From: an uncultured Gammaproteobacteria bacterium
GTDB lineage: Bacteria; Pseudomonadota; Gammaproteobacteria; Steroidobacterales; Foliamicaceae
Length of the DNA stretch: 64,000 nt
Reading direction: 5' to 3'
NCBI GenBank assembly: GCA_951828235.1
Contig: OX639965.1
Coordinates: 2,245,556-2,309,555, forward strand
Position numbers and translations under genes: made by a program
Shown here: in pieces, positions 7,457 through 21,581 of the stretch
How the letters are laid out: each line of letters opens with the position of its first letter
Position numbering within the stretch: position 1 is the stretch's first letter
The notes under the pieces: model-generated
What the model saw: the letters and a program-made list of their open reading frames with translations, nothing else
Databases searched by the model: none
Told to the model about the DNA's origin: nothing

Positions 7457-8107
7457 ATGAAGTTTGAGAACTTGCTCGCGATTGTTGAAGACGAGCCGGT
7501 GTTCGAGACCGGCTGGCTGATGACGGGACGGCCTGCGGATTCCAGCTTGCGGGCGCAGCTCAGCCGGTGGACCCGGGCAGGGCGTTTGCACCAGCTTCGT
7601 CGTGGTTTGTACGCTCTGGCGCCGCCGTATCGCAAGGTTATCGCCGATCCCTTTGTCATCGCCAACCGGCTGATGCCGGGTTCCTATGTGTCGACGCATT
7701 CGGCCCTGGCGTTTGCTGGCGTGATTCCCGAGCACGTGACAGCCACGACGAGTTGCGGGCCGGGCCGCCCATACAAGCGCGACACGTTTCTGGGCCGCTA
7801 TATTTTTCAGCACCTTCGCGCGGAGATGCTCGATCTTTCCGTTAGCGGCGCGGCAGGATACCGGCAGGTCGAACTGGTTCGCAACCAGCGCGCGCTCATT
7901 GCGACGCCGGAGAAAGCACTGCTGGACCTTGCCTATCTCACGGCCGGCGCCGATGATTTGCGCTGGGTCGAGGAAATGCGCTTTGACTGCCAAATGCTTG
8001 ATACGGAGTTTCTGCTGGCGCTGGCGAAAGCTTCGCGCAAGCCAAAGCTCGTGCGCTGCGCCCGGCTTGTAGCGGATGCGGCGCGACGGTTGCGTGAAGC
8101 TGCATGA
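7457..8107 (+). CDS. abiEi: Type IV toxin-antitoxin system antitoxin, AbiEi family
   Basis: N-terminal winged-helix-like region (LRAQLSRWTRAGRLHQLRRGLYAL) and a C-terminal domain (PEKALLDLAYL) typical of AbiEi. ATGA overlap with the downstream AbiEii gene. Confidence 0.8.
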   Translation: MKFENLLAIVEDEPVFETGWLMTGRPADSSLRAQLSRWTRAGRLHQLRRGLYALAPPYRKVIADPFVIANRLMPGSYVSTHSALAFAGVIPEHVTATTSCGPGRPYKRDTFLGRYIFQHLRAEMLDLSVSGAAGYRQVELVRNQRALIATPEKALLDLAYLTAGADDLRWVEEMRFDCQMLDTEFLLALAKASRKPKLVRCARLVADAARRLREAA

Positions 8108-8895
8108 AAGGATATCTCCGGCAACTCATTCGGGAGTCTGCTCCGCAGCACGGCCGTAACGCCGTGCGCGAATACCTGCAGGCGCGCATTCTTGAGGAAC
8201 TGATGCGCGTCGGCGCCATGTCGCCACTGGCTTTCGTGGGCGGAACGGCCCTGCGTTTCCTCTACTATATGCGACGCTATTCCGAAGATCTCGATTTCTC
8301 GCTGGAGGGCCCGAGCGAGCAATACGACCTGGATCGCTGGGTCAAGGCGGTGGCGCGGCAGTTTGAGCGCGAAAAGTACGCCATCGAGCACGTGATCCGG
8401 CGGCAGGGCGCCGTTCACGGAGTGTCGCTGAAGTTTCCCGGAATTCTCAATGAGATCGGGCTCTCGCCCCACCCAAGTGAAACTCTGATGATCCGCCTTG
8501 AAATCGACACAAGGCCCCCGGCGGGCGCTGTCACACATGCCAGCCGCGTGAACCGGCACGTGTCCTTGAGGCTGCACCATCACGACAAGGCTTCGCTCTT
8601 GGCGGGCAAACTACTCGCCGTGCTCAACCGCCAATGGGCCAAGGGCCGCGACTTCTACGATCTCGCCTGGTACCTCGGCCGCCGCGACTGGCCAGCGCCG
8701 AACCTGAAGATGCTGAACAACGGCCTTGAGCAAGCCAACGCTGCCCCGCTCACCCGCGAGACGTGGCGGGCGCACGTCGCAGCCCGCGTTGCGGAAGTCG
8801 CCTGGAAGGAAGTAGCCTCCGACATCGACCGATTCGTCGAAGACCCCGACGACACCCTCACCCAACAGGAACTTCTGACCCTGCTCGAATCATGA
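8104..8895 (+). CDS. abiEii: Nucleotidyltransferase toxin, AbiEii/AbiGii family
   Basis: Motifs FVGGTALRFLYYMRRYSEDLDFSLEG and RGRDFYDL are typical of AbiEii nucleotidyltransferases. Start overlaps the abiEi stop by 4 nt. Confidence 0.85.
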   Translation: MKGYLRQLIRESAPQHGRNAVREYLQARILEELMRVGAMSPLAFVGGTALRFLYYMRRYSEDLDFSLEGPSEQYDLDRWVKAVARQFEREKYAIEHVIRRQGAVHGVSLKFPGILNEIGLSPHPSETLMIRLEIDTRPPAGAVTHASRVNRHVSLRLHHHDKASLLAGKLLAVLNRQWAKGRDFYDLAWYLGRRDWPAPNLKMLNNGLEQANAAPLTRETWRAHVAARVAEVAWKEVASDIDRFVEDPDDTLTQQELLTLLES

Positions 8896-9169: not shown

Positions 9170-9611
9170 CGATTGCAGCGACCAGCCGCCGTGCAATTCA
9201 ATCGCATGATCAATGCGCTGCATCATATCTCGGGGCACCGCATATGCGGCGGTAGCGTGTGATGTCATCGTATGAGAGTACGCGGTTTTTTCGGTCTTTA
9301 GTCCATTTCTCCGCAGGACGGTATCCGCCTACGGTGAACTCCCAAGTCGCTGAGTCCACGCCCTCGAAGCACAGTCTTCGGTTGATCCAAACATGGCTCG
9401 GCTCCGTTTCGGATGATGCAGGCACATACGGCGTGGCCACGCGGCTGCTGCCTGTGTGAGAAAAAGCGGGCAGACTCTTGGCAGGGCAAAAAAATGCCAA
9501 AATGCTAAAGATGTCGTGTGCAACGAGCTCCAGGAACGCCACTCCGCCGATTTTGAAGCGGCCCGGGGTCGGGCTAATCGCCGCCCTGTTTATTGCATCG
9601 ATAAGCGGCAT
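9170..9611 (-). pseudogene. C-terminal remnant of a large N6-DNA-methyltransferase / type ISP-like RM enzyme (frameshifted)
   Basis: WEFTVGGYRPAEKWTKDRKNRVLSYDDITRYRRI (ORF 9210-9611) continues in another frame as ...MMQRIDHAIELHGGW (top of ORF 8912-9268). This matches the conserved C-terminal GGYxxxEKWLKDRKGRxLSxDDIxHY...IDxxI..HGGW block of these enzymes as I remember it. Confidence 0.6.
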
Positions 9612-10998
9612 GTCTATAGCTGAATCATCTGTCGGGGGTAAGCCGCTGTTTGATGCGGCGAAGAACGGCGATGTCGAAGCGGTGCGCCGGTATCTAGACC
9701 GGGGAGCAAGCCCAAATGAGCGCGATAGGGCCGACGCACCCTTAATTCTCCGTGCGGCCTGTTATGGGCGGCTGGGTGTAATTCGGCTGCTAATCGAGAG
9801 GGGCGCGGAAGTAAACGCGAGGCAAGACGGTGATTGGACGGCTATCTTTTGCGCCGCCAGATACGACGAATTGGCTACCGTTGAGTTTCTGATCGAATCC
9901 GGCGCAGACCTTACTCTAAGAGCCGAAAACGGGAATTCAATCACGGATACGGCACGACAGGGCGAAGCTTGGAAAGTTGTCAGTCTCCTTGAGGGAGATG
10001 CCGCTCGATTGGCAACTCCCGAGCCCGCTGAACTCAGCTGCGACGAGTTGAGCCGCTACATTGAGAGCAAAACTACGGGTGCTTTCGCCGCCTCCATGGA
10101 AAGGGAATCAGACGCGGAAACAAAGGCGGTAGAAACGAACAGAAATTTTGTGCAGGCGGGCGCGTTTGGTGCGCGCGGGCTCATCAAGAATTGCACCGGC
10201 GAAGGGTTTAGCGCGGCCGCCCTGATCGACATCGACTCTCTATCCGCGCAGTCCTGCAGATACCTCCGCCTTGCCCATGCGTCGGGTGTCCTTGCTGCTG
10301 CCACAGACCAAATCGCCTTTGAGCGTGCAATGCGCGATGACGAAGACGAGGAAGGCGATGTTGCATTTGCTTCGTTGGGCACTTCCGCCAGGTTTCTTGG
10401 CGCGATTGAGGAGGTTTTGTCCGAGCGCCGTTGCCGCGCTGCATCATCCGCTGAAATACAGCTGCTTCTGGAAGCGCAGTTGAGATCGGACGATATTGAA
10501 AACTTCAATCTTGAGAAGGCATGGGACGCGATAGATCAAGGCGATGCTACTGCGCCAAAGGCTGCTGCACCAACGGCCCCCGCCGCAGAAACGGCATCCC
10601 GATGTCCTCGCAGGGGATTTCACGTTGAGGACGGCCATCTTCTGAGAGAGACGGGGCTTAGGTCAAAGATTGCCGACTTGGTTCGCGTCCGGTTACGTGC
10701 CGCCGGTTTGCACAAGCCCACGCCGGCATCATCGCGCCGGACGTCCCGACATCTTGCCGTGCGAGTCTCTCTGCCTTCGTTTCAAACTGACAACACCGCT
10801 TCGTCATTTGTTTTCGCCACCGAGGTCACTTTCTACAAACAACCCCCCGAAGCGGGCGGATCACCCGTCGAGGCCGCCTGGATTGGCGGGGACTCAGGCG
10901 TTGGGTCCACAAGCGAGATCGCAAACGAAGTGCTGAAACATGTGGATCGCTTCATAAGCGAATACAAGGCAGCCAATCCAAACTGCTCGGGATCATAG
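9502..10998 (+). CDS. Ankyrin-repeat protein with a predicted signal peptide and a ~330-aa unassigned C-terminal region
   Basis: ANK repeats: PLFDAAKNGDVEAVRRYLDRGASPNERD, LILRAACYGRLGVIRLLIERGAEVNARQ, TAIFCAARYDELATVEFLIESGADLTLR. N-terminus KRPGVGLIAALFIASISGMSIA|ES is Sec-signal-like. Start uncertain (TTG 9478, ATG 9502/9511/9610). Visibly lower GC than the flanks. Confidence 0.75.
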   Translation: MLKMSCATSSRNATPPILKRPGVGLIAALFIASISGMSIAESSVGGKPLFDAAKNGDVEAVRRYLDRGASPNERDRADAPLILRAACYGRLGVIRLLIERGAEVNARQDGDWTAIFCAARYDELATVEFLIESGADLTLRAENGNSITDTARQGEAWKVVSLLEGDAARLATPEPAELSCDELSRYIESKTTGAFAASMERESDAETKAVETNRNFVQAGAFGARGLIKNCTGEGFSAAALIDIDSLSAQSCRYLRLAHASGVLAAATDQIAFERAMRDDEDEEGDVAFASLGTSARFLGAIEEVLSERRCRAASSAEIQLLLEAQLRSDDIENFNLEKAWDAIDQGDATAPKAAAPTAPAAETASRCPRRGFHVEDGHLLRETGLRSKIADLVRVRLRAAGLHKPTPASSRRTSRHLAVRVSLPSFQTDNTASSFVFATEVTFYKQPPEAGGSPVEAAWIGGDSGVGSTSEIANEVLKHVDRFISEYKAANPNCSGS

Positions 10999-11048: not shown

Positions 11049-11243
11049 TTACGGCCATTCTTTCGCCAAATGGGCCGTCTGCCGTCTCTCGCCATTCACG
11101 TACCAGCGGAACTCCAGGTAGTCGGTGAGGATCAGGTTTGGCAAACCCGGCCGGTAGCTGTGCTCGGTTCCGTGTCCCGTTGCATACGTACTTGCTACGT
11201 CTCGCCGGTAGGTGCGGAGCGCATTGCGCACAGTTGCATTCAT
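11049..11243 (-). pseudogene. N-terminal remnant of the same methyltransferase/RM gene (internally deleted)
   Basis: TGHGTEHSYRPGL directly abutting NLILTDYLEFRWYVNGE. In intact homologues, as I remember them, these two N-terminal motifs are separated by tens of residues. The ORF stops after 64 aa. Confidence 0.5.
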
Positions 11244-11442
11244 CAGGTTTTAGCGGTTTGCACGGTCAGGTAAGTTGACGGATTTTTCGATGCCGTCATC
11301 GGACTTGTCTGCTATCGGGTCCCACCAATTGGCTCTCCTCAAAGAACACCGCAGTTCGCCCATCCATCCCCGTAGAATAAGCACCTAATTTCCGGGCTGC
11401 CTGTTTGGTAGCCCTCGGCGTAGCCTACAAGATGAGGCGGCG

Positions 11443-11940
11443 ATGTCGAAGCCCATCGCGTACATCGAGACATCTGTCGTCAGTTATCTGACGGCAAGGC
11501 AGCCTCGGGATGTGATAGTCGCCGCCTATCAGGAAGTGACGCGTGAATGGTGGCGCGCAGCCTTGACAGCATTCGAGCTTGTCGCATCGGAACTTGTGAG
11601 AACGGAGGCGGGAGCCGGAAACGAGCGCGCAGCCCGCGCGAGGCTAAAGGCGCTGGAGTCCGCAACGCTACTCGACATCACCGAAGATGCGGAGGCTCTC
11701 ACCCGGCGTTTGCTGGACCAAGGCGCCTTGCCGCGCCAGGCCGCCGCGGATGCTGCGCACATCGCCATTGCCGTTACGAACGGGGTTGATTATCTGGTAA
11801 CGTGGAACTTTCGGCACATTGCTAATGCGGCTATGCGATCTCAAATCGAGCAAGTCTGCCGTGAGGCCGGTTACGAGCCGCCGGTGATCTGCACCCCTAA
11901 CGAGCTGATGGAGTCTGGTCATGCAGAAAAAACAGCCTGA
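11443..11940 (+). CDS. PIN-domain protein (VapC-like toxin family)
   Basis: MSKPIAYIETSVVSYL..., DAAHIAIAV and YLVTWNFRHI give a PIN-like arrangement of acidic residues and the N-terminus typical of this widespread PIN subgroup. Confidence 0.7.
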   Translation: MSKPIAYIETSVVSYLTARQPRDVIVAAYQEVTREWWRAALTAFELVASELVRTEAGAGNERAARARLKALESATLLDITEDAEALTRRLLDQGALPRQAAADAAHIAIAVTNGVDYLVTWNFRHIANAAMRSQIEQVCREAGYEPPVICTPNELMESGHAEKTA

Positions 11941-12243: not shown

Positions 12244-13191
12244 TCAGGCGCTCGGCCGAGCCTGAGGCTGGGGCAGGCCGGCGCCGAGCGGTAGGAGTTC
12301 GCGGTAAATGGCGGTGTGCAGCGGCGTAGGCACGCCGGTTTCTTCGCCCATGCGGTGGATCGCGCCCGACAGCCATTCGATCTCCAGCCGGTTGCCGCGC
12401 TCAAGGTCCGTCAGCAGCGACGCCTTGCCGCCGAAGGCGAACACGTTTTTCAGCGTCGCGCGGGTCTCCGTTTCGATATCCCCGGGCAAGGGCACATCCA
12501 GCGCGCGCGCAACGCCAAGCGCCTCCTGCATGGCGATTTCCAACAGCCAGTGCATGGCCGGATTTCCGGCCAGGGCGTCGAATCCTCTCCCGGTAGCCGC
12601 ATTGATCGAGCTGGAGCAGGCCACCATCAGGAACTTGAGCCACAGCATGACCCGCATGTCCCGGTGCGCCTGGCCGGTCACACCGGCTTTCGAGAAAATC
12701 TCCGCGAACCGCCGAGTGCGTCGGCTTACGCCGTCCGCCGGTTCGGCGAGATTGATCATCAGCGTATCCCCTTCGCGCAGGACCACGGCCGGCGCGATGA
12801 GCTTCGCGACGACCTGTACCGTTCCGCCCACCACCTTGCCTGGCGGTAGCAGACGCGCGGCGACTGACGGAGCATCGAGACCGTTCTGCAAGGTGACTAC
12901 GCAGCCGCAGGAGGCAAGCCACTCCAGGTTTCCGCGGATGGCTCCCTTGAGGTCATAGCGCTTCATGCAAAGCAGTACGGCGTCGGCCGGCGGTCGTCCG
13001 GCCGGGTTTGCGGCGACGTCCACGCTGCGGGCACGGAAAGGTTGCAGCTCGTGCCGGACCTCAAGGCCGCGGTCGGCGAGGGCGCGCGCACTGCTTCCCC
13101 GCGCCACGAAAACTACGTCGTGTCCGGCACGCAACAGCGCCGCTCCGAGGCTGCCTCCCACGCCGCCGACGCCCATGATCGCAAATCGCAT
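12244..13191 (-). CDS. 2-dehydropantoate 2-reductase family (ApbA/PanE-like)
   Basis: Rossmann N-terminus [32 protein letters not shown] and C-terminal ...[21 protein letters not shown]. Start at M17 of the tracked ORF. Confidence 0.75.
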
Positions 13192-13240
13192 GCGGGCTAT
13201 ACTGCCCGTTTTGCCCGCGCAGGAACAACAATCGTTCACG

Positions 13241-15403
13241 ATGCCGACCGATGACCCACAAGCGGCGCCCCGAGAATTGCCGCCGGACTGGGCGGCCCGT
13301 GCTCAAAAGGAGCTCAAGGGCGTTGATGCCGCGAGCCTGATCTGGGACACGCCGGAAGGCATCCCGGTCAAGCCGCTGTACACGGTCGAAGACCTCGAGG
13401 GCCTTGAACACACGCGCAGCCTGCCCGGCGCGCCGCCGTACGTGCGCGGGCCGCGGTCCACGATGTATGCGGGCCGGCCCTGGACCGTGCGCCAGTATGC
13501 GGGGTTCTCCACCGCCGAGGAATCCAATGCGTTCTACCGGCGCAACATCGCCGCCGGCCAGACGGGCTTGAGCGTCGCCTTCGACCTGCCTACGCACCGC
13601 GGCTACGACTCGGACCATCCCCGCGCGCTGGGCGATATCGGCAAGGCCGGCGTCGCCATCGACACCGTCGAGGACATGAAACGCCTGTTCGACGGCATCT
13701 CTCTCAAGGACATGTCGGTTTCCATGACGATGAACGGGGCGGTCCTGCCGGTCATGGCCATGTACGTCGTGGCGGCGGAGGAGCAGGGCGCGCGCCTCAA
13801 AGACCTTGCCGGGACCATGCAGAACGACATTCTCAAGGAGTTCATGGTCCGCAACACCTACATCTATCCTCCTCAGCCGTCCATGCGGATCGTGGGCGAC
13901 ATCATCGCCTTCAGCGCCCGCAGCATGCCGCGCTTCAATCCGATCTCGATATCCGGCTACCACATGCTGGAGGCGGGGGCGACGGCGGTCCAGGAGCTGG
14001 GCTATACGCTGGCCGATGGCCTGGAGTACGTCCGCGCGGCCATGAACGCGGGTCTCGACGTGGACGAGTTCGCCCCGCGATTGAGTTTCTTCTTCGGGAT
14101 CGGCATGAATTTCTTCATGGAGGCGGCCAAGCTGCGCGCTGCCCGGCTGTTGTGGGCGGAGCTCATGCAGGAACGGTTTTCGCCGGGCAATCCCCGCTCG
14201 CTCATGCTGCGCACGCATTGCCAGACCTCGGGAGTGAGCCTCACCAGCCGGGACCCTTACAACAACGTCATTCGAACCACGGTGGAGGCGCTGGCGGCGG
14301 TTCTGGGAGGAACTCAGTCGCTGCACACCAACAGTTTCGACGAGGCCCTGGCGCTGCCGACCGACCATTCGGCCCATATCGCCCGCAACACCCAACTCGT
14401 CCTGCGCGAGGAAACCGGCGTGACCCGTGTTGCCGACCCGCTGGGCGGCTCATATTATGTGGAAAGCCTCACCGCCTCCTTGGCGGCGGGCGCCCGCGAA
14501 CTGATCCGCGAAGTGGAAGACCTGGGTGGCATGACGCGGGCCATCGAGGCGGGCGTTCCGAAGCTGCGCATCGAGGAAGCTGCGGCGCGCCGGCAGGCGC
14601 GCATGGAGCGCGGTGAGGACGTGGTGGTAGGAGTCAACCGGTACCAGCTTGCCGACGAATCCGAGGTTGAACTGCTTGACATCGACAATCGAAAGGTGCG
14701 GGACAGCCAGTTGCGGCGGATCGCCGAGGTACGGTCCCAGCGCGATGACAAAGCCTGCCGTTTGGTGCTTGATGCGTTGCGCCAGGCGGCCTCGCAGGAT
14801 GGGGCCGATCTCGTTGCTCCGGCGCTGGAAGCGGCCCGCCGCCGGGCCACGGTTGGGGAGATTTCAGTTGCCATGGAAGAGGTATTCGGCCGGCACCGGG
14901 CCGTTTCGCAGACCGTGAGCGGGGTGTATTCGCGAGCCTACGAAGGTGACGAGGCTTTCGCAGCCCTTCAGAAGCAGGTGCGCGAATTCGGAAAACGGAA
15001 AGGACGACGTCCGAGAATCCTGGTAGCCAAGCTGGGCCAGGACGGCCACGACCGCGGCGCCCGTGTGGTGGCCTCTGCGCTCGCGGACCTCGGCTTTGAC
15101 GTGGACATCGGTCCGCTGTTTCAGACTCCCGAGGAGGTCGCGCGCCAGGCCGTGGAGAACGACGTGCACCTGGTGGGCATTTCCTCGCAGGCGGCGGGAC
15201 ACCGGGAGCTGGCGCCGCTCATGATCGAGGCGCTGCGCGCCGAAGGCGCGGACGACGTGAGGGTGGTCATCGGAGGAATCATTCCCCGAAAGGACCGGAA
15301 GATGCTTATGGATGCCGGCGTGGCGCTGATATTCGAGCCCGGTTCCAACATTACCGCGGCAGCCGGCGAAATGCTGGCGCTGCTGGAGGGAGGTGAACAG
15401 TGA
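13241..15403 (+). CDS. Methylmalonyl-CoA mutase, single-chain form with a C-terminal B12-binding domain
   Basis: [61 protein letters not shown]; C-terminal [23 protein letters not shown] (DxHxxG B12 motif). Start at M93 of the tracked ORF. Confidence 0.95.
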
Positions 15404-16941
15404 GCGAGCGGGCCCGAAAGCTCAGGCGGCTGGAGGAAATGCGCGCGGCCTCGCGCGCCGGCGGCGGCGAGGCGCGGGTAAAGCGTCAACACGACCGCGG
15501 CAAGCTGACGGCGCGCGAACGCCTGGAAGTACTGCTCGATGCCGACAGCTTCGAGGAGTGGGACGCCTTCGTGGAACACCGCTGCAGCGATTTCGGCATG
15601 GACGAGCAGCGGATTCCCGGTGATGGCGTGATATCCGGTCACGGACGCATCAACGGCCGCCTGGTGTTCGTATTCAGCCAGGACTTCACCGTGTTCGGCG
15701 GCTCGCTTTCGGAGACCAATGCCCGCAAGATCTGCAAGGTGATGGAGCAGGCCGTAAAGGTTGGGGCGCCCATCATCGGCCTGAACGATTCCGGCGGGGC
15801 GCGCATTCAGGAAGGCGTGGCCTCGCTGGGCGGCTATGCCGACGTGTTCCAGCGCAATGTTCTCGCTTCCGGCGTGGTGCCGCAACTTTCGCTGGTGATG
15901 GGGCCCTGCGCCGGCGGCGCCGTTTATTCGCCCGCCATCACGGACTTCATTTTCATGGTGCGCGGAACCTCGTACATGTTCGTGACCGGGCCGGACGTGG
16001 TGAAGACGGTCACGGCCGAGGAAATCACCGCCGAGGAACTGGGCGGGGCGGACACGCACAATTCCCGCTCCGGCGTTGCCGACCGGGCCTTCGACGACGA
16101 CGTGGAAACACTGCGCATGGCGCGCCTGCTGACGGGATACCTGCCGTCCAGCAACCGCGAACGCGCCCCGGCAAGACCCACGGAGGACCCCGAGGACCGG
16201 GCCGAGCCGTCCCTCAACAGCCTGGTCCCCACCGACCCGGCCAAGCCCTACGACATCAAGGAACTGATCTACAAGGTGGCGGACGAGAGCGAGTTCTTCG
16301 AGCTGCAGCCGGACTTCGCGCGCAACATCGTGACCGGCTTCGTTCGGATCGCCGGGGAAACGGTGGGCGTGGTGGCCAACCAGCCCGCGGTGCTGGCCGG
16401 CTGCCTTGACATCGAAGCCTCCGTCAAGGGCGCGCGATTCGTTCGTTTTTGCGATGCTTTCTCGATTCCGCTGCTGACGCTGGTGGACGTGCCGGGCTTT
16501 ATGCCGGGATCGCAGCAGGAATACGGCGGCATCATCCGCCACGGCGCCAAGCTGCTCTACGCCTACGCCGAGGCCACCGTGCCCAAGGTCACCGTGATCA
16601 CGCGCAAGGCCTACGGCGGCGCTTACGACGTCATGTCGTCCAAGCACCTGCGCGGCGACGTGAATTTCGCCTGGCCCAGCGCCGAGATCGCCGTCATGGG
16701 CCCCCAGGGCGCTGTGGAAATCATTTTCCGCCAGGACATCGGCGATGCGGAGAAGATCGCCGCCCGCACCGAGGAGTACCGGCGCAAGTTCGCCCACCCC
16801 TACGTCGCGGCGGGACGCGGCTACATCGACGACGTCATTGAGCCGAGCGTTACCCGCGCTCACCTGTGCCGCTCCTTCGCCATGCTGCGCAACAAGCGCA
16901 TCAGGGACCCCTGGCGCAAACACGGCAACATCCCGCTTTGA
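15400..16941 (+). CDS. pccB: Propionyl-CoA carboxylase beta subunit (carboxyltransferase)
   Basis: [36 protein letters not shown] and [29 protein letters not shown] start overlaps the mutase stop (GTGA). Confidence 0.9.
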
Positions 16942-18953
16942 AAAAGCTGCTGATCGCCAACCGCGGGGAGATTGCCTGCCGCATCATGCGCGGCGCGCAA
17001 GCTCTGGGGATCCGCAGCGTGGCCGTCTATTCCGACGCCGACGCCGACGCGCTCCATACGCGCACCGCCGACGAGACGGTCTGCATAGGGGGCCTGACCG
17101 CGGCGGAGAGCTATCTCGACCTGGGAAAAATCATTGCGGCGTGCAAACAATCGGGCGCGGATGCCTTGCACCCCGGTTACGGCTTCCTGTCCGAGAATTC
17201 AGCGTTCGCCGCGGCGGTCGAGGAAGCGGGCATTACCTTCGTCGGACCGCCCGCGGAAGCGATTCGGCTTATGGGCGACAAGCTTCAAGCCAAGCGCATC
17301 GCGGCGAAGGCCGGCGTTCCCACCATACCCGGACGCCCCGAGGCGCTGGAGAGCGCCGACGGCGCCGCGGAAGCGGCTGCCGATATCGGCTACCCGGTAT
17401 TGCTGAAGGCCCAGGCCGGCGGCGGCGGGCGCGGCATGCGCATCGCGCGCGACGAAGCCGAGTGCCGCGCGGGCTTCGAGCAGGCCGTGCGGGAAGCCCA
17501 GGCGGCGTTCGGCGACGGCCGTGTCTTCGTGGAGAGATACCTCGAGCGTCCGCGCCATATCGAAGTCCAGGTGCTCGCCGACAGCCGCGGTTCGGTGGTG
17601 CACCTGGGCGAGCGCGAGTGTTCGATTCAGCGGCGCCACCAGAAGGTCATCGAAGAGGCGCCGTCGCCCTTCGTGACGCCGGAAATGCGCTCCGAAATGG
17701 GTCGGGCGGCCGTTTCGCTTGCAAAGGCGATCGGTTACCGCTCGGCGGGGACCGTCGAGTTCGTGGTGGACTCCTCGCGCAATTTCCACCTGCTCGAGAT
17801 GAACACCCGTCTGCAGGTGGAGCATCCGGTCAGCGAATGGATCACCGGCATCGACCTGGTGCAGTGGATGCTGCGCATTGCCGACGGCGAAGCGCTGGAT
17901 TTCACGCAGGAGGACGTGGAACTCAGGGGTTGGTCCATGGAGGCGAGGATCTGCGCCGAAGATCCGGAGCGGGACTTTCTGCCCGCTGCCGGGCGCCTGG
18001 TACGCTGGCTGCCTCCGTCCTCGGACAGTTCGGCGGACGGTGGAGCTTCCTGGCGGGAAAGCGGCTCGGCGCCGCGCCTGGACGCCGGGGTGGAGGAGGG
18101 CGACGAGGCTTCCGTCTACTACGATTCCCTGATCGCGAAGCTGGTGGTGTACGGAACGGACCGGGACCAGGCCGCCGCCCGGCTGGCTGCCGCGCTCGAC
18201 GATTTCGCCGTCGAGGGGCCGGCCACCAACGTCCTGTTTCTGGCTTCCCTGGCTCGCCATCCCCGGTTCGCCGCAGGAGATATCACCACTGCCTTTATCG
18301 CCGAAGAATATCCCGACGGATTTCAGCCCGCCGCGAATTGTTCCGACGCATTGGCGCAGTTGCTTGGTGCGGTGACCGTCATGGTCCAGGATCGCGCCGC
18401 CCGATCCATGCCGGGGGACTGGACCGAGGCCGTGCTTCTTTCCGACGGCGGCGAAGTGCCGCTCAAGAGGAAATGGGAAGGCGGACGTTTGAGCGTTCGA
18501 TTCGGAAGGCGCGTGTATCGGCTGGAGAGCGGCTGGCGTCCGTTCGAGCCCATTGCACGGTGCAAGGTGAAGGTTCCCGGGGCTTCCGGTTTGACCGGAG
18601 GCGATTTGTGTTTCGTCATTCAGCGCGACGGACTGCGGGTCGCCGTCTCGCATGCGGGCGTCAGGCTTGAGTACGTGTACCTTCCGCCGCGGTCCGCGCG
18701 GCTGAAGGGGCGCATGGCCGCCCGTCCGGCGCAACTGGGGGTCACGGCGCTCAATGCGCCGATGCCCGGCGTGCTGACGCAGCTGAGAGTCGATGAAGGC
18801 GAGGAGGTGAAGACCGGGCAGGAGATCGGCGTCATCGAGGCGATGAAGATGGAGAACAGCCTGCGCTCGCCCCGCGATGGCCGTATCCGTCATATCGCCG
18901 TGAACCCGGGCGACAATCTGGAAACCAACCAGCTGATCCTGAAGTACGAATGA
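16938..18953 (+). CDS. pccA: Propionyl/acetyl-CoA carboxylase alpha subunit (biotin carboxylase + BCCP)
   Basis: [31 protein letters not shown] and [14 protein letters not shown]; C-terminal biotinylation motif [12 protein letters not shown] 16938 overlaps the pccB stop (TTGA); the tracked ORF extension upstream is pccB sequence read in another frame. Confidence 0.9.
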
Positions 18954-20179
18954 GCGACCGGATCCAAGCCCTGGCCGACGGCGCACTGGCCGGCGATCGG
19001 CGCAGCCTGGCGCGCGCGCTGACCCTGGTTGAGTCGGAGCGCGGCGTTGACCGGGACGCGGCGCGCGAGTTGATTGCGCGGCTTGAAGCGGCCTCCAGCC
19101 CCGCCACCAGAATCGGGATCACGGGCCCGCCCGGAGCGGGAAAATCCACGCTGATCGAGCAGTTGGGCCTGCGCTTCGTCGACGGGGGCAAACGCGTGTG
19201 CGTGCTGGCGGTCGACCCTACGTCGTCGCGCACCGGCGGCTCGATACTGGGCGACAAGACCCGGATGTCCGAATTGACGCGCAAGGCAGGCGTATTCATC
19301 CGGCCCTCGCCCACCGGCGACGGCAGCGGCGCATTGAGCGGCCGCACGCGCCAGGCCCTGCAGGTCCTGGGCAGCGGGCCGTTCGATTACCTGCTGCTGG
19401 AAACGGCCGGCTCGGGACAGGCGGATACCGAGGTCGCCGGCCTGGTGGACGTGCTCGTTCTGGTGCTGGCGCCCGGCGGGGGAGACGAGTTGCAGGGGAT
19501 GAAGCGCGGCATACGGGAGCTTGCGGACCTGATCGTCGTCAACAAGGCGGACGGCGAGACGCGCCAGTTGGCGCAATCCACGGCGTCCGATTACGCGCGG
19601 TCGATCCCGGCGGCGGGTCGCGGCGCGGTGGTCAGTTGCTCGGCGCTGGAGGGAACCGGCCTGGACGAACTCGCCCGCCGGATCGGCGAACTGGCCGACT
19701 CCGCGCCGGACAGGGAAAAGGCGGGGCAGGCGCGCGAGCGCGATGCGTCGGGTGCGATCGGGCGGCTTAACCACGTGGCGCTGGCCACGACGAATGTCGA
19801 GGAGGCCGCCGCCTTCTATCGCGATGTCCTGGGCGCCGAGGTTTCCGAACCCAGGCCCATGCCCGAGCATGGCGTGACCACCGTGTTCGTTCGACTGCCC
19901 AACAGCGCGCTGGAACTGCTGGAACCGCTGGGCGAGGATTCGCCGGTGAGCGGTTTTCTCAAGCGCGCAACCGCCGGCGGGATGCACCATATCTGCTGCG
20001 AAGTGGACGACATTCTGGCGGCGCGCGACAGAGTGCGCGAGCAGGGCGTGCGCATACTGGGGGACGGCGAGCCCAGCATCGGCGCGCATGGCCTGCCGGT
20101 CCTGTTTCTGCACCCCAAGGACTGCTTCGGGGTGCTGATCGAATTGGAAGAACGTGCTAGCGTTGGATCCGAGAGTTAA
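18950..20179 (+). CDS. meaB: MeaB/ArgK-like G3E GTPase fused to methylmalonyl-CoA epimerase (VOC fold)
   Basis: Residues ~55-205: GITGPPGAGKSTLIE, DPTSSRTGGSILGDKTRM, ETAGSGQAD, VVNKADG. Residues ~270-402: NHVALATTNVEEAAAFY, LELLEPLGEDSPVSGFL, GGMHHICCEVDDI, GAHGLPVLFLHPKD. Single ORF; ATGA overlap with pccA. Confidence 0.85.
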   Translation: MSDRIQALADGALAGDRRSLARALTLVESERGVDRDAARELIARLEAASSPATRIGITGPPGAGKSTLIEQLGLRFVDGGKRVCVLAVDPTSSRTGGSILGDKTRMSELTRKAGVFIRPSPTGDGSGALSGRTRQALQVLGSGPFDYLLLETAGSGQADTEVAGLVDVLVLVLAPGGGDELQGMKRGIRELADLIVVNKADGETRQLAQSTASDYARSIPAAGRGAVVSCSALEGTGLDELARRIGELADSAPDREKAGQARERDASGAIGRLNHVALATTNVEEAAAFYRDVLGAEVSEPRPMPEHGVTTVFVRLPNSALELLEPLGEDSPVSGFLKRATAGGMHHICCEVDDILAARDRVREQGVRILGDGEPSIGAHGLPVLFLHPKDCFGVLIELEERASVGSES

Positions 20180-20203
20180 TCGGGCGCTGGCGAGGAGGTC
20201 CTG

Positions 20204-20584
20204 ATGCCGCTGTTATTTGTGCTTTTGGCGACGCTGCTGCTGGCGTCATCCGTCTTTCTGGGCGCCTACGGAACGCACGGTCTTTTTGAGGCGGGCGCCG
20301 CCGTTTCGGAAGTGCGGGCCTGGGACTGGGCGAACCAGTTACAGGTAGCGCATTCGCTGGGATTGCTGGCCGTCGGGCTGATGCTGCGCCGCAGCCCGGA
20401 CATCGTGTTCTACAAGGTCGCCGGCTGGCTGCTGATCGTGGGCATCGCGGTGTTTTCGGGCACGAACTACGTGAAACTGCTGGGCGGCCCCGACTTTGCC
20501 TCGCTGACTCCCTACGGCGGCATGGCGCTGGCGGTTGCCTGGCTCAGCGCCGCCGCGGGCGTCTGGCGCGACTTCCGCTCGTAA
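20204..20584 (+). CDS. DUF423 (YgdD/TMEM256-like) small membrane protein
   Basis: Four predicted TM segments; FLGAYGTHGL matches the GAxGAHGL-type motif of DUF423. Confidence 0.65.
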   Translation: MPLLFVLLATLLLASSVFLGAYGTHGLFEAGAAVSEVRAWDWANQLQVAHSLGLLAVGLMLRRSPDIVFYKVAGWLLIVGIAVFSGTNYVKLLGGPDFASLTPYGGMALAVAWLSAAAGVWRDFRS

Positions 20585-20586
20585 TC

Positions 20587-20613
20587 CCGGGAAATAGGGC
20601 GTCCCGCCCTCAC
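20587..20613. repeat. GC-rich hairpin repeat copy 1 (CCGGGAAATAGGGCGTCCCGCCCTCAC)
   Basis: 25 of 27 positions identical to 29850-29876. Core stem AGGGCG / CGCCCT with loop TCC. Begins 2 nt after the DUF423 stop codon. Confidence 0.7.
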
Positions 20614-21581
20614 TGAAGGCGAGACGCCTTCACTCCCTGGGCGTCGGCGGCATTGATGACGGCGCTGATTTCGGCATCGTGGCCCGCGACGCGGCAGTAT
20701 TTTCTCAGGATGCCCTGCAGGTTGGGCCGCTTCTCCGCTGGCGTGTCGCCGCGCCCGATCCCGCCCCCCAGTTCGAGGAATGACGAGGCGCCGTTCTCCA
20801 CCGCCCACTGCATGCATCCGATCCAGTTCACCGGGTTGATGAGCTGAAAGAACAGCCGGGTGCGGATGGCGTCCGGCGCCGGATCGTGCGGTCGGGCCGT
20901 GTAGTTGGACAGCACCGGGAAACGCGGGGCAAGGAATTCCGTGCGCTTGAGCACCTCGCGGAACTCCCGGGCCGCCGTCACCATCAGATAGGTGTGGAAT
21001 GCGCCCTCGGTGGCCAGCGGCGCCCCCCGCTTGCGCGGGTAGTTTTCCGCCAGGTCGGCCGCAAGTTGCTCCAGGTCCGCGTGCGCGCCGCCGACCACCG
21101 TCTGGGTCGGCAGGTTCAGGCCGGCGATCTGGCAGCAGTGCCGGTCGGCCAGCTGCCGCGCTTCGTCAGCGGCCATGGCAAGCGCCAGCATGCCGCCTTC
21201 GCCGTGTTCGCCCATCAGCCGGCCGCGCTCGCTGACCAGGTGAAGCGCATCCCGGAAGGAAAGGGCGCCGCCGGCGACCAGCGCGCTGTACTCGCCGAGA
21301 CTGTGTCCTGCAGCCGCCATTGGCGTCAATTCGCCGCCCAATTGCGCTTCTGCGACCCGCAGGCAGGCGATCGAATGGGTCAGCAGGGCGGGTTGCGTAT
21401 AGCGGGTCAGCCCGATCTTCCCTTCCGGGTCGCTGAAGCTGAGCTCCCGCATGTCGTAGCCGAGCGCCTCGCCGGCCTCGTCGTACACCCTTCGGGCCGC
21501 ATCGAAGGCCTCGTGGAGATCGCTGCCCATTCCGGCGTACTGGGCGCCCTGGCCGGGGAATACCAGCATTCCCGTATCCAT
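20610..21581 (-). CDS. Malonyl-CoA:ACP transacylase (FabD) family paralogue
   Basis: LVFPGQGAQYAGMG, active-site GHSLGEYSALVAGG, and EGAFHTYLM. Start at M38 (or M42) of the tracked ORF, 11 nt after the aminotransferase stop. No ACP or fab genes adjacent. Confidence 0.75.
   Translation of the reverse strand: MDTGMLVFPGQGAQYAGMGSDLHEAFDAARRVYDEAGEALGYDMRELSFSDPEGKIGLTRYTQPALLTHSIACLRVAEAQLGGELTPMAAAGHSLGEYSALVAGGALSFRDALHLVSERGRLMGEHGEGGMLALAMAADEARQLADRHCCQIAGLNLPTQTVVGGAHADLEQLAADLAENYPRKRGAPLATEGAFHTYLMVTAAREFREVLKRTEFLAPRFPVLSNYTARPHDPAPDAIRTRLFFQLINPVNWIGCMQWAVENGASSFLELGGGIGRGDTPAEKRPNLQGILRKYCRVAGHDAEISAVINAADAQGVKASRLQ
20615..20631. terminator. Second hairpin GAAGGCG-AGA-CGCCTTC in a convergent gene gap
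   Basis: 7-bp stem with a 3-nt loop, read directly. Overlaps the last codons of the minus-strand FabD-like gene. No U-tract. Confidence 0.3.

Follow-up and report, generated by a model that had tools for sequence, protein, structure and literature searches.

Can a MeaB-type GTPase that has lost its dimerisation arm still serve as a chaperone when it is joined to another enzyme of its own pathway? The question is raised by one gene in a 64,000-nucleotide stretch of DNA (the window) from contig OX639965.1 of assembly GCA_951828235.1, which derives from an uncultured gammaproteobacterium of the Foliamicaceae. The gene, here meaB::mce, is an open reading frame (ORF) of 409 codons at 18950..20179 on the + strand, with an ATG start that overlaps the stop codon of the preceding gene, pccA (ATGA), and it encodes a MeaB-like GTPase fused to a methylmalonyl-CoA epimerase. 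As G-protein chaperones, MeaB and MMAA are the models for B12 delivery; methylmalonic aciduria results from defects in MMAA. On balance, we favor the reading that the protein is a bifunctional chaperone-epimerase that originated by deletion and in which an epimerase dimer replaces the arm. The bifunctional part of this statement, taken by itself, is quite likely judging from the sequence, and the replacement of the arm, for which we argue by analogy, is a serious but tentative proposal.

Translation of the window gives zero internal stops in the ORF, in agreement with the initial annotation, which had described a single uninterrupted in-frame ORF of 409 aa. The motifs that it quoted are all in place: in the GTPase half GPPGAGKST at residues 59-67 of the fusion, DPTSSRTGGSILGDKTRM at 89-106, ETAGSGQAD at 151-159, and NKAD at 198-201, and in the epimerase half NHVALAT at 274-280, ELLEPLGEDSPVSGFL at 322-337, GGMHHICCEVDDI at 343-355, and GAHGLPVLFLHPKD at 378-391. 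Profile searches with Pfam and NCBIfam also place both domains in the one ORF, as had been proposed. The Pfam MeaB model (PF03308) passes its cutoff on residues 20-261 (E 2.3e-75, 253.6 bits against a cutoff of 23.1), Glyoxalase_4 matches residues 274-386 (E 3.8e-20), and the NCBIfam methylmalonyl-CoA epimerase model TIGR03081 aligns over its full length (1-129 of 129) to residues 272-401 with 166.7 bits against a cutoff of 114.95. The matches to both domains are far above chance. When the sequences of solved structures were searched with the fusion, M. extorquens MeaB was found with E 9e-61 and human MCEE with E 9e-49. In an AlphaFold2 model of the fusion as a single chain, built on an alignment of 79 sequences, both domains are folded and the mean predicted local distance difference test score (pLDDT) is 79.8, with low confidence in switch I (90-104), a loop at 122-128, switch III (179-186), residues 255-265, and the last five residues (405-409).

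A joint of this kind could in principle be an artefact, that is, a stop codon lost, a frameshift, or a mis-assembly in the window. Errors do occur in the family: the ends of two public homologues, P0064 (397 aa) and P0081 (544 aa), look like garbage sequence, as a frameshift within the arm or the epimerase would produce, and both are probably sequencing errors or pseudogenes and not natural split forms. The exact protein of the window had no database record on look-up, and a 99% identical protein (P0001) was used in its place; its gene is on an independent contig of 367 kb and has the same neighbours there. Proteins of the short fusion architecture (403-441 aa) fall into about 63 clusters when grouped at 90% identity. 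When one genome was scanned for each species, the fusion was found in five Gammaproteobacteria in GTDB (L001-L005), some of them labelled Candidatus Foliamicus (order Ca. Foliamicales), and in four of these five the contigs are 2.4-3.2 Mb long and labelled 'chromosome: 1'. The fusion lies in a mutase-pccB-pccA operon in six genomes (L001-L005 and L083). No stop or frameshift thus separates the halves in these relatives, which keep one ORF, and what is missing relative to ordinary MeaB is an arm of about 70 codons, which no point change would remove. With the ORF conserved in independent genomes we rule out a frameshift or lost stop, and the artefact is effectively refuted. We also considered an internal start from which a separate epimerase could be made. 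Between residues 228 and 275 none of the codons ATG, GTG, or TTG occurs in frame, and the ATG at 19743 is out of frame with the fusion, so this candidate is rejected and the epimerase is not translatable by itself.

The MeaB part comprises residues 1-254 (18950..19711, +), as delimited by the Pfam match, structural alignment with Foldseek, and the ratio of nonsynonymous to synonymous substitution rates (dN/dS). It consists of an N-terminal helical extension, the G domain, and, at the expected beginning of the arm, one remaining helix (238-258 in the model). Within the G domain we located the P-loop (59-67), switch I (89-106), switch II (151-155), switch III (174-185), NKAD (198-201), and the G5 motif CSAL (230-233), and the same set of elements, with the N-terminal extension, is found in the solved MeaB and MMAA structures (2QM7, 8DPB, 2WWW, 8GJU). 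Foldseek aligns the model with MeaB/MMAA structures at target-normalised template modelling (TM) scores of 0.64-0.71 (0.68-0.71 for 2QM7, 4JYB, and 8DPB). Identity to M. extorquens MeaB is 42-46% in the Foldseek alignments, and the location in a mutase operon is a further likeness. In alignments of 17-79 sequences, residues S66, D89, and E151, which bind Mg or take part in catalysis, D179, Q182, and K185 of switch III, and K199 are invariant, as are the NKAD and G5 motifs among the homologues aligned. S66, D89, and E151 correspond to Ser157, Asp193, and Glu242 of MMAA (PMC10356863), and D179, Q182, and K185 to D182, Q185, and K188 in switch III of MeaB (PMC9974510). Switch I, the surface by which MeaB contacts the B12 domain of the mutase (PMC9974510), differs at two positions from that of M. 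extorquens MeaB. By tblastn there is no second meaB or mce in the 64-kb window.

What sets this protein apart from MeaB and MMAA is the end of the GTPase half, along with variant ETAGSGQAD and GDGSGALS motifs and the attached epimerase. About 70 arm residues that are present in free-standing MeaB and in the longer fusions described below are absent from the alignments of the window fusion. The MeaB profiles end early (Pfam at position 247 of 273, PRK09435 at 280 of 333), which confirms the loss of the C-terminal arm, and the AlphaFold2 model has at the arm position one residual helix followed by disorder. The initial annotation had supposed that the arm was shortened or replaced, and the shortening at least can be read directly from these alignments. 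MeaB and MMAA dimerise through the arm, which also acts as their hinge, and an active GTP site requires switch III of a second protomer (PMC9974510, PMC10356863).

In place of the arm is a linker of residues 255-269 (19712..19756, +), recognized from pLDDT, dN/dS, and alignments. The pLDDT falls below 50 at residues 255-265, and one relative (L005) carries 32 additional low-complexity residues here. The epimerase domain follows at residues 270-402 (19757..20155, +), as supported by TIGR03081, structure matches, and dN/dS. It resembles human MCEE (3RMU, 6QH4) and the epimerases of P. shermanii (1JC4) and S. coelicolor (6WF6) in being full length and having four metal ligands, and differs from these free-standing enzymes in being joined to MeaB and in having Ala instead of the initiator Met. 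The paired beta-alpha-beta-beta-beta fold is present, and Foldseek aligns the domain with human MCEE at 59-60% identity, TM-score 0.92-0.95, and a root-mean-square deviation of 1.2-1.6 A. At least 90% of the sequences aligned share the ligands H275, E322, H347, and E398. E322 aligns with Q60 of the S. coelicolor enzyme, and the position of its E43 is T311 in the window domain; human MCEE likewise lacks that glutamate. Because of the identity to human MCEE and the presence of all four metal ligands, the epimerase half is probably active.

Comparison of the window with its five relatives (L001-L005) gives dN/dS of 0.10-0.16 for the G domain (residues 1-244), 0.04-0.14 for the epimerase half, and 0.25-0.97 for the linker region (residues 245-270). 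The fusion proteins of these lineages are 69-90% identical and synonymous divergence (dS) reaches about 1.2. Judged from these alignments, purifying selection acts on the GTPase half as well as on the epimerase half, and the joint between them is a free linker.

The origin of the fused gene can be approached through more distant relatives. Separate meaB and mce genes lie in the same operon in L007, L041 (Porticoccaceae), L043, L058, and L078 (Acidiferrobacteraceae), all more distant Gammaproteobacteria, and a related operon with separate meaB and mce occurs in L051 (Neomarinimicrobiota). Each of these six genomes has meaB next to mce as two ORFs, which lie in different frames or have a stop between them, often with overlapping stop and start codons. 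The free-standing MeaB of these relatives has a full helical arm at its C-terminal end. Their free-standing mce begins MIGRLNHVA, where the window protein reads ...SGAIGRLNHVA, so the epimerase is complete from its ancestral second residue (IGRLNHVA), and it is the arm and the stop codon that are missing. Given separate genes with a full arm in distant Gammaproteobacteria, the fused gene most likely arose through one deletion over the meaB-mce junction in the Foliamicus lineage, in which about 70 arm codons and the stop were lost; this is the simplest history that we infer from the sequences. The layout in L051 (5534-13042) is different: there, meaB, a separate mce, and then pccB come after two mutase-like ORFs with 28% and 62% identity to the window mutase, a pair that suggests a two-subunit mutase.

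The implication in the initial annotation that a chaperone-epimerase fusion is new holds in part. Of the 120 best matches in a collection of 5.8 billion proteins, at least 114 have both the MeaB and the Glyoxalase_4 Pfam domains, and about 49 of the two-domain matches among these best 120 are of a long class (466-496 aa) that keeps the arm. A figure legend in a study of peatland Acidobacteria lists 'MeaB+Mce' among 'bifunctional fusion genes/proteins' (Hausmann et al., ISME J 2018, PMC6018796). As a class the MeaB-epimerase fusion is already in databases and in print and is no discovery, and since the architecture is common and has been named, the novelty shrinks to the arm-deleted form conserved in one gammaproteobacterial lineage. 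In the searchable literature we found no biochemical study of any MeaB-epimerase fusion, that legend being the sole mention, and nothing under the name 'Foliamicus'. NCBI names the two-domain architecture either 'MeaB' or 'methylmalonyl-CoA epimerase' (P0021/P0023 under one name and P0053/P0058 under the other, in this or the reverse pairing). Either name hides half of the function, and pathway reconstructions that rely on names may wrongly score a step as missing.

Long forms include one named example each from Methylomirabilia and Acidobacteriota, and one long-form gene (L081) lies in the same mutase-pccB-pccA-fusion operon. They have the same domain order as the window fusion, to which they are 41-57% identical, but unlike it they keep a complete arm plus a linker, and relative to them the window form appears from sequence to be an arm-deleted derivative. 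Among representatives at 50% identity, the window clade is a single cluster, and there are at least 15 other, long-form clusters in the top 150. Four short armless forms belong to a different MeaB subfamily (P0122, P0138, P0160, P0248); all are singletons on contigs of 2-7 kb, and they hint only weakly that arm loss recurs outside the window clade. We also noted unusually long MeaB-containing proteins, P0128 (1918 aa, with the MeaB domain at 532-793), P0131 (729 aa), and P0123 (561 aa), which may be further, different MeaB fusions.

If the fused protein is a bifunctional chaperone-epimerase, its C-terminal domain would convert (S)-methylmalonyl-CoA from the co-encoded propionyl-CoA carboxylase to the (R)-isomer used by the mutase. 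The N-terminal MeaB-type G3E GTPase would gate the loading of adenosylcobalamin onto the co-encoded single-chain mutase, its presumed client, and the removal of damaged cofactor. A deletion in the Candidatus Foliamicus lineage would have joined meaB and mce when they were adjacent and translationally coupled. Free-standing epimerases are dimers (structures 1JC4 and 3RMU). Free MeaB needs two protomers, with switch III of one completing the GTP site of the other, and from this we infer that the naturally dimeric epimerase could hold two G domains together through the flexible linker of about 15 residues, in the arm's stead. Expression of the two halves at 1:1 would be a side effect, and the epimerase might possibly be co-located with the mutase. 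The initial annotation had likewise suggested that such a fusion would link repair of the mutase with provision of the (R)-isomer.

Several observations weigh against this reading. In the MeaB half, TIGR00750 passes narrowly (240.9 against a cutoff of 240.75) and NF006958 fails (285.6 against 329), a shortfall in profile score that stems from the missing C-terminus. In switch II (residues 151-159, window 19400-19426) the short clade has ETAGSGQAD where conserved MeaB has ETVGVGQSE, with V replaced by A and by S among the changes, and its loop at 122-130 (window 19313-19339) reads GDGSGALS in place of the conserved GGTLGGVA. The stretch past the 'wedge' helix, which wedges the mutase open, is shorter in this clade. 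To judge by sequence, these clade-specific changes could alter or weaken the chaperone function. As for the replacement of the arm, the many long forms that retain it indicate that fusion is useful, or neutral, with no arm to replace, and the dimeric state of the fused epimerase is argued by analogy with the structures of free-standing epimerases.

Taken to the extreme, the first group of these observations would make the MeaB half a decaying remnant, so that the protein would be an epimerase only and the mutase would be served by another chaperone or by none. The absent arm, the changes at several normally conserved MeaB positions, the one NCBIfam equivalog below its cutoff, and the naming of some members just as 'methylmalonyl-CoA epimerase' by NCBI would all agree with decay. 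We nevertheless consider it very unlikely, as the dN/dS of the G domain is similar to that of the epimerase half over lineages of the divergence given above, and the residues that bind nucleotide and Mg and those of switch III are all invariant. The G domain has also diverged to about the same extent as pccA from the same operon: for MeaB the window and L007 are 53% identical and L007 and L043 62%, and for pccA the values are 52% and 60%. Since the effect is this modest, we do not claim faster evolution of MeaB after the loss of the arm.

The changes in switch II and the nearby loop, together with the placing of both domains on one chain, could also be read as re-targeting, in which the G3E half would serve not the mutase but the fused VOC domain, as a metallochaperone that supplies its divalent metal. 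G3E GTPases deliver metals, and the epimerase itself is a metalloenzyme. This is, however, extremely improbable. Switch I, which contacts the mutase B12 domain, is conserved, the gene remains in the mutase operon, and the long-form fusions are ordinary full MeaB proteins. A Cys/His metal-binding motif of the CobW/HypB/UreG type is not visible by eye in the translation or the alignment, where no motif search was run.

An analogy for the proposed chaperone-epimerase is IcmF (4XC6), in which an armless MeaB-like G domain is likewise naturally joined to a protein of the same pathway, and in which the G domain must pair with a second G domain for activity. Through oligomerisation, the armless IcmF G domain comes to form the interface seen in MeaB/MMAA (PMC10481361). 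In IcmF the partner is the mutase itself; in the window the mutase has its own gene and the G domain is joined to the epimerase. The ORF contains no mutase domain, and the IcmF model NF045497 gives 110 bits against a cutoff of 1500.

The same analogy serves a plainer explanation, in which the fusion is a neutral or merely regulatory accident. Loss of the junction between two overlapping genes by deletion would have fixed a polypeptide co-expressed at 1:1, with halves that act independently. As in IcmF, the G domains would pair only transiently, when on the mutase, and there would be no structural part for the epimerase. Armless IcmF G domains dimerise upon GTP binding with no tether (PMC10481361). 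The common occurrence of adjacent meaB-mce pairs with overlapping stop and start codons makes fusion mechanistically easy, and in a neighbour-joining tree, calculated without support values, fused and unfused forms interleave. An unconstrained linker, in length as well as in sequence, and the persistence of the arm in long forms, for which fusion is useful or tolerated with nothing replaced, would also be expected of an accident. On the other hand, in our alignments every armless MeaB of the sample is fused to an epimerase, and this confinement of arm loss would be unexpected if the epimerase added nothing. Free MeaB and MMAA, moreover, are obligate dimers with the arm as hinge (PMC9974510, PMC10356863). 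We regard such an accident as possible though rather unlikely, and continue to prefer the chaperone-epimerase in which the epimerase dimer would hold the G domains.

A more ambitious version is doubtful but would have consequences. If the epimerase dimer not only took the role of the arm but also docked the epimerase on the mutase-chaperone assembly, there would be a natural mutase-chaperone-epimerase complex in which (R)-methylmalonyl-CoA is made at the mutase, with whatever channelling that would allow. There would then be a physical coupling of G-protein gating with the supply of substrate, and evolution could be expected to lose the arm repeatedly once an epimerase is fused. Even short of this, the fusion is a candidate for a physical link between epimerase and mutase. 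In current models the arm is central: it is the hinge of the obligate dimer. In the window protein the arm is deleted, an enzyme of the pathway that would be dimeric stands in its position, and the arm-deleted form is kept under purifying selection over a whole bacterial lineage. It is therefore a natural test of whether any dimerising tether suffices, as the armless IcmF domain also suggests.

The fusion is the last of four coupled genes, all on the + strand. The first encodes a single-chain methylmalonyl-CoA mutase of 720 aa (13241..15403) with a substrate barrel (Pfam MM_CoA_mutase, E 2e-233) and a B12-binding domain, which NCBIfam NF006944 recognizes with 1193 bits against a cutoff of 876. 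We set its start at 13241 because a longer ORF (from 12965) overlaps a divergent ApbA/PanE gene upstream. Next are pccB, for the propionyl-CoA carboxylase beta (carboxyltransferase) subunit (15400..16941; GTG start; Pfam Carboxyl_trans, E 6e-201), and pccA, for the alpha subunit with biotin carboxylase and biotin carrier domains (16938..18953; TTG start). The pccA product matches Biotin_carb_N, CPSase_L_D2, Biotin_carb_C, and Biotin_lipoyl, and with the start at 16938 the profile alignment begins at residue 2. That the four genes form a start/stop-coupled unit had been noted before, and all three 4-nt overlaps are indeed present (GTGA at 15400-15403, TTGA at 16938-16941, and ATGA at 18950-18953). 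The mutase is three genes upstream of the fusion in this unit, and the arrangement is kept in L001-L005. In L003 (7763-7956) and L005 (7558-7974) there is a gap of about 190-420 nt between pccB and pccA, compared with the 4-nt overlap in the window, so not every member of the clade has this junction tightly coupled.

Whether the fusion also closes the operon, as had been claimed, is less certain. It is the last of the coupled genes, but a gene for a small DUF423 protein (20204..20584, +; Pfam DUF423, E 3.6e-18) begins 24 nt past its stop on the same strand, after a Shine-Dalgarno-like GAGGAGG, and is a possible fifth gene of the unit, so that the end is not established. The order mutase-pccB-pccA-fusion-DUF423 is found in five of five genomes (L001-L005), with DUF423 directly after the fusion (at about 11230-11720), and the gene has the same place in the 99% identical contig (L083). 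DUF423 was not detected after mce in L007, L043, and L058, and the link of this membrane-protein gene to the operon is clade-specific. Rfam found two tRNAs only in the window, with no cobalamin riboswitch or other RNA element near the operon, and a scan for promoters and terminators over 12800-21000 gave no more matches than in shuffled sequence.

The region just upstream of the operon (8.9-12.2 kb) is sparse in coding sequence and resembles a small accessory island. It contains a gene for a 506-aa ankyrin-repeat protein (9478-10998, +; Pfam Ank/Ank_2, E about 1e-13), which is flanked by an AbiEi/AbiEii toxin-antitoxin pair (7457-8895, +) and a PIN-domain ORF (11443-11940, +). Eukaryote-like ankyrin-repeat proteins are typical of host-associated bacteria.

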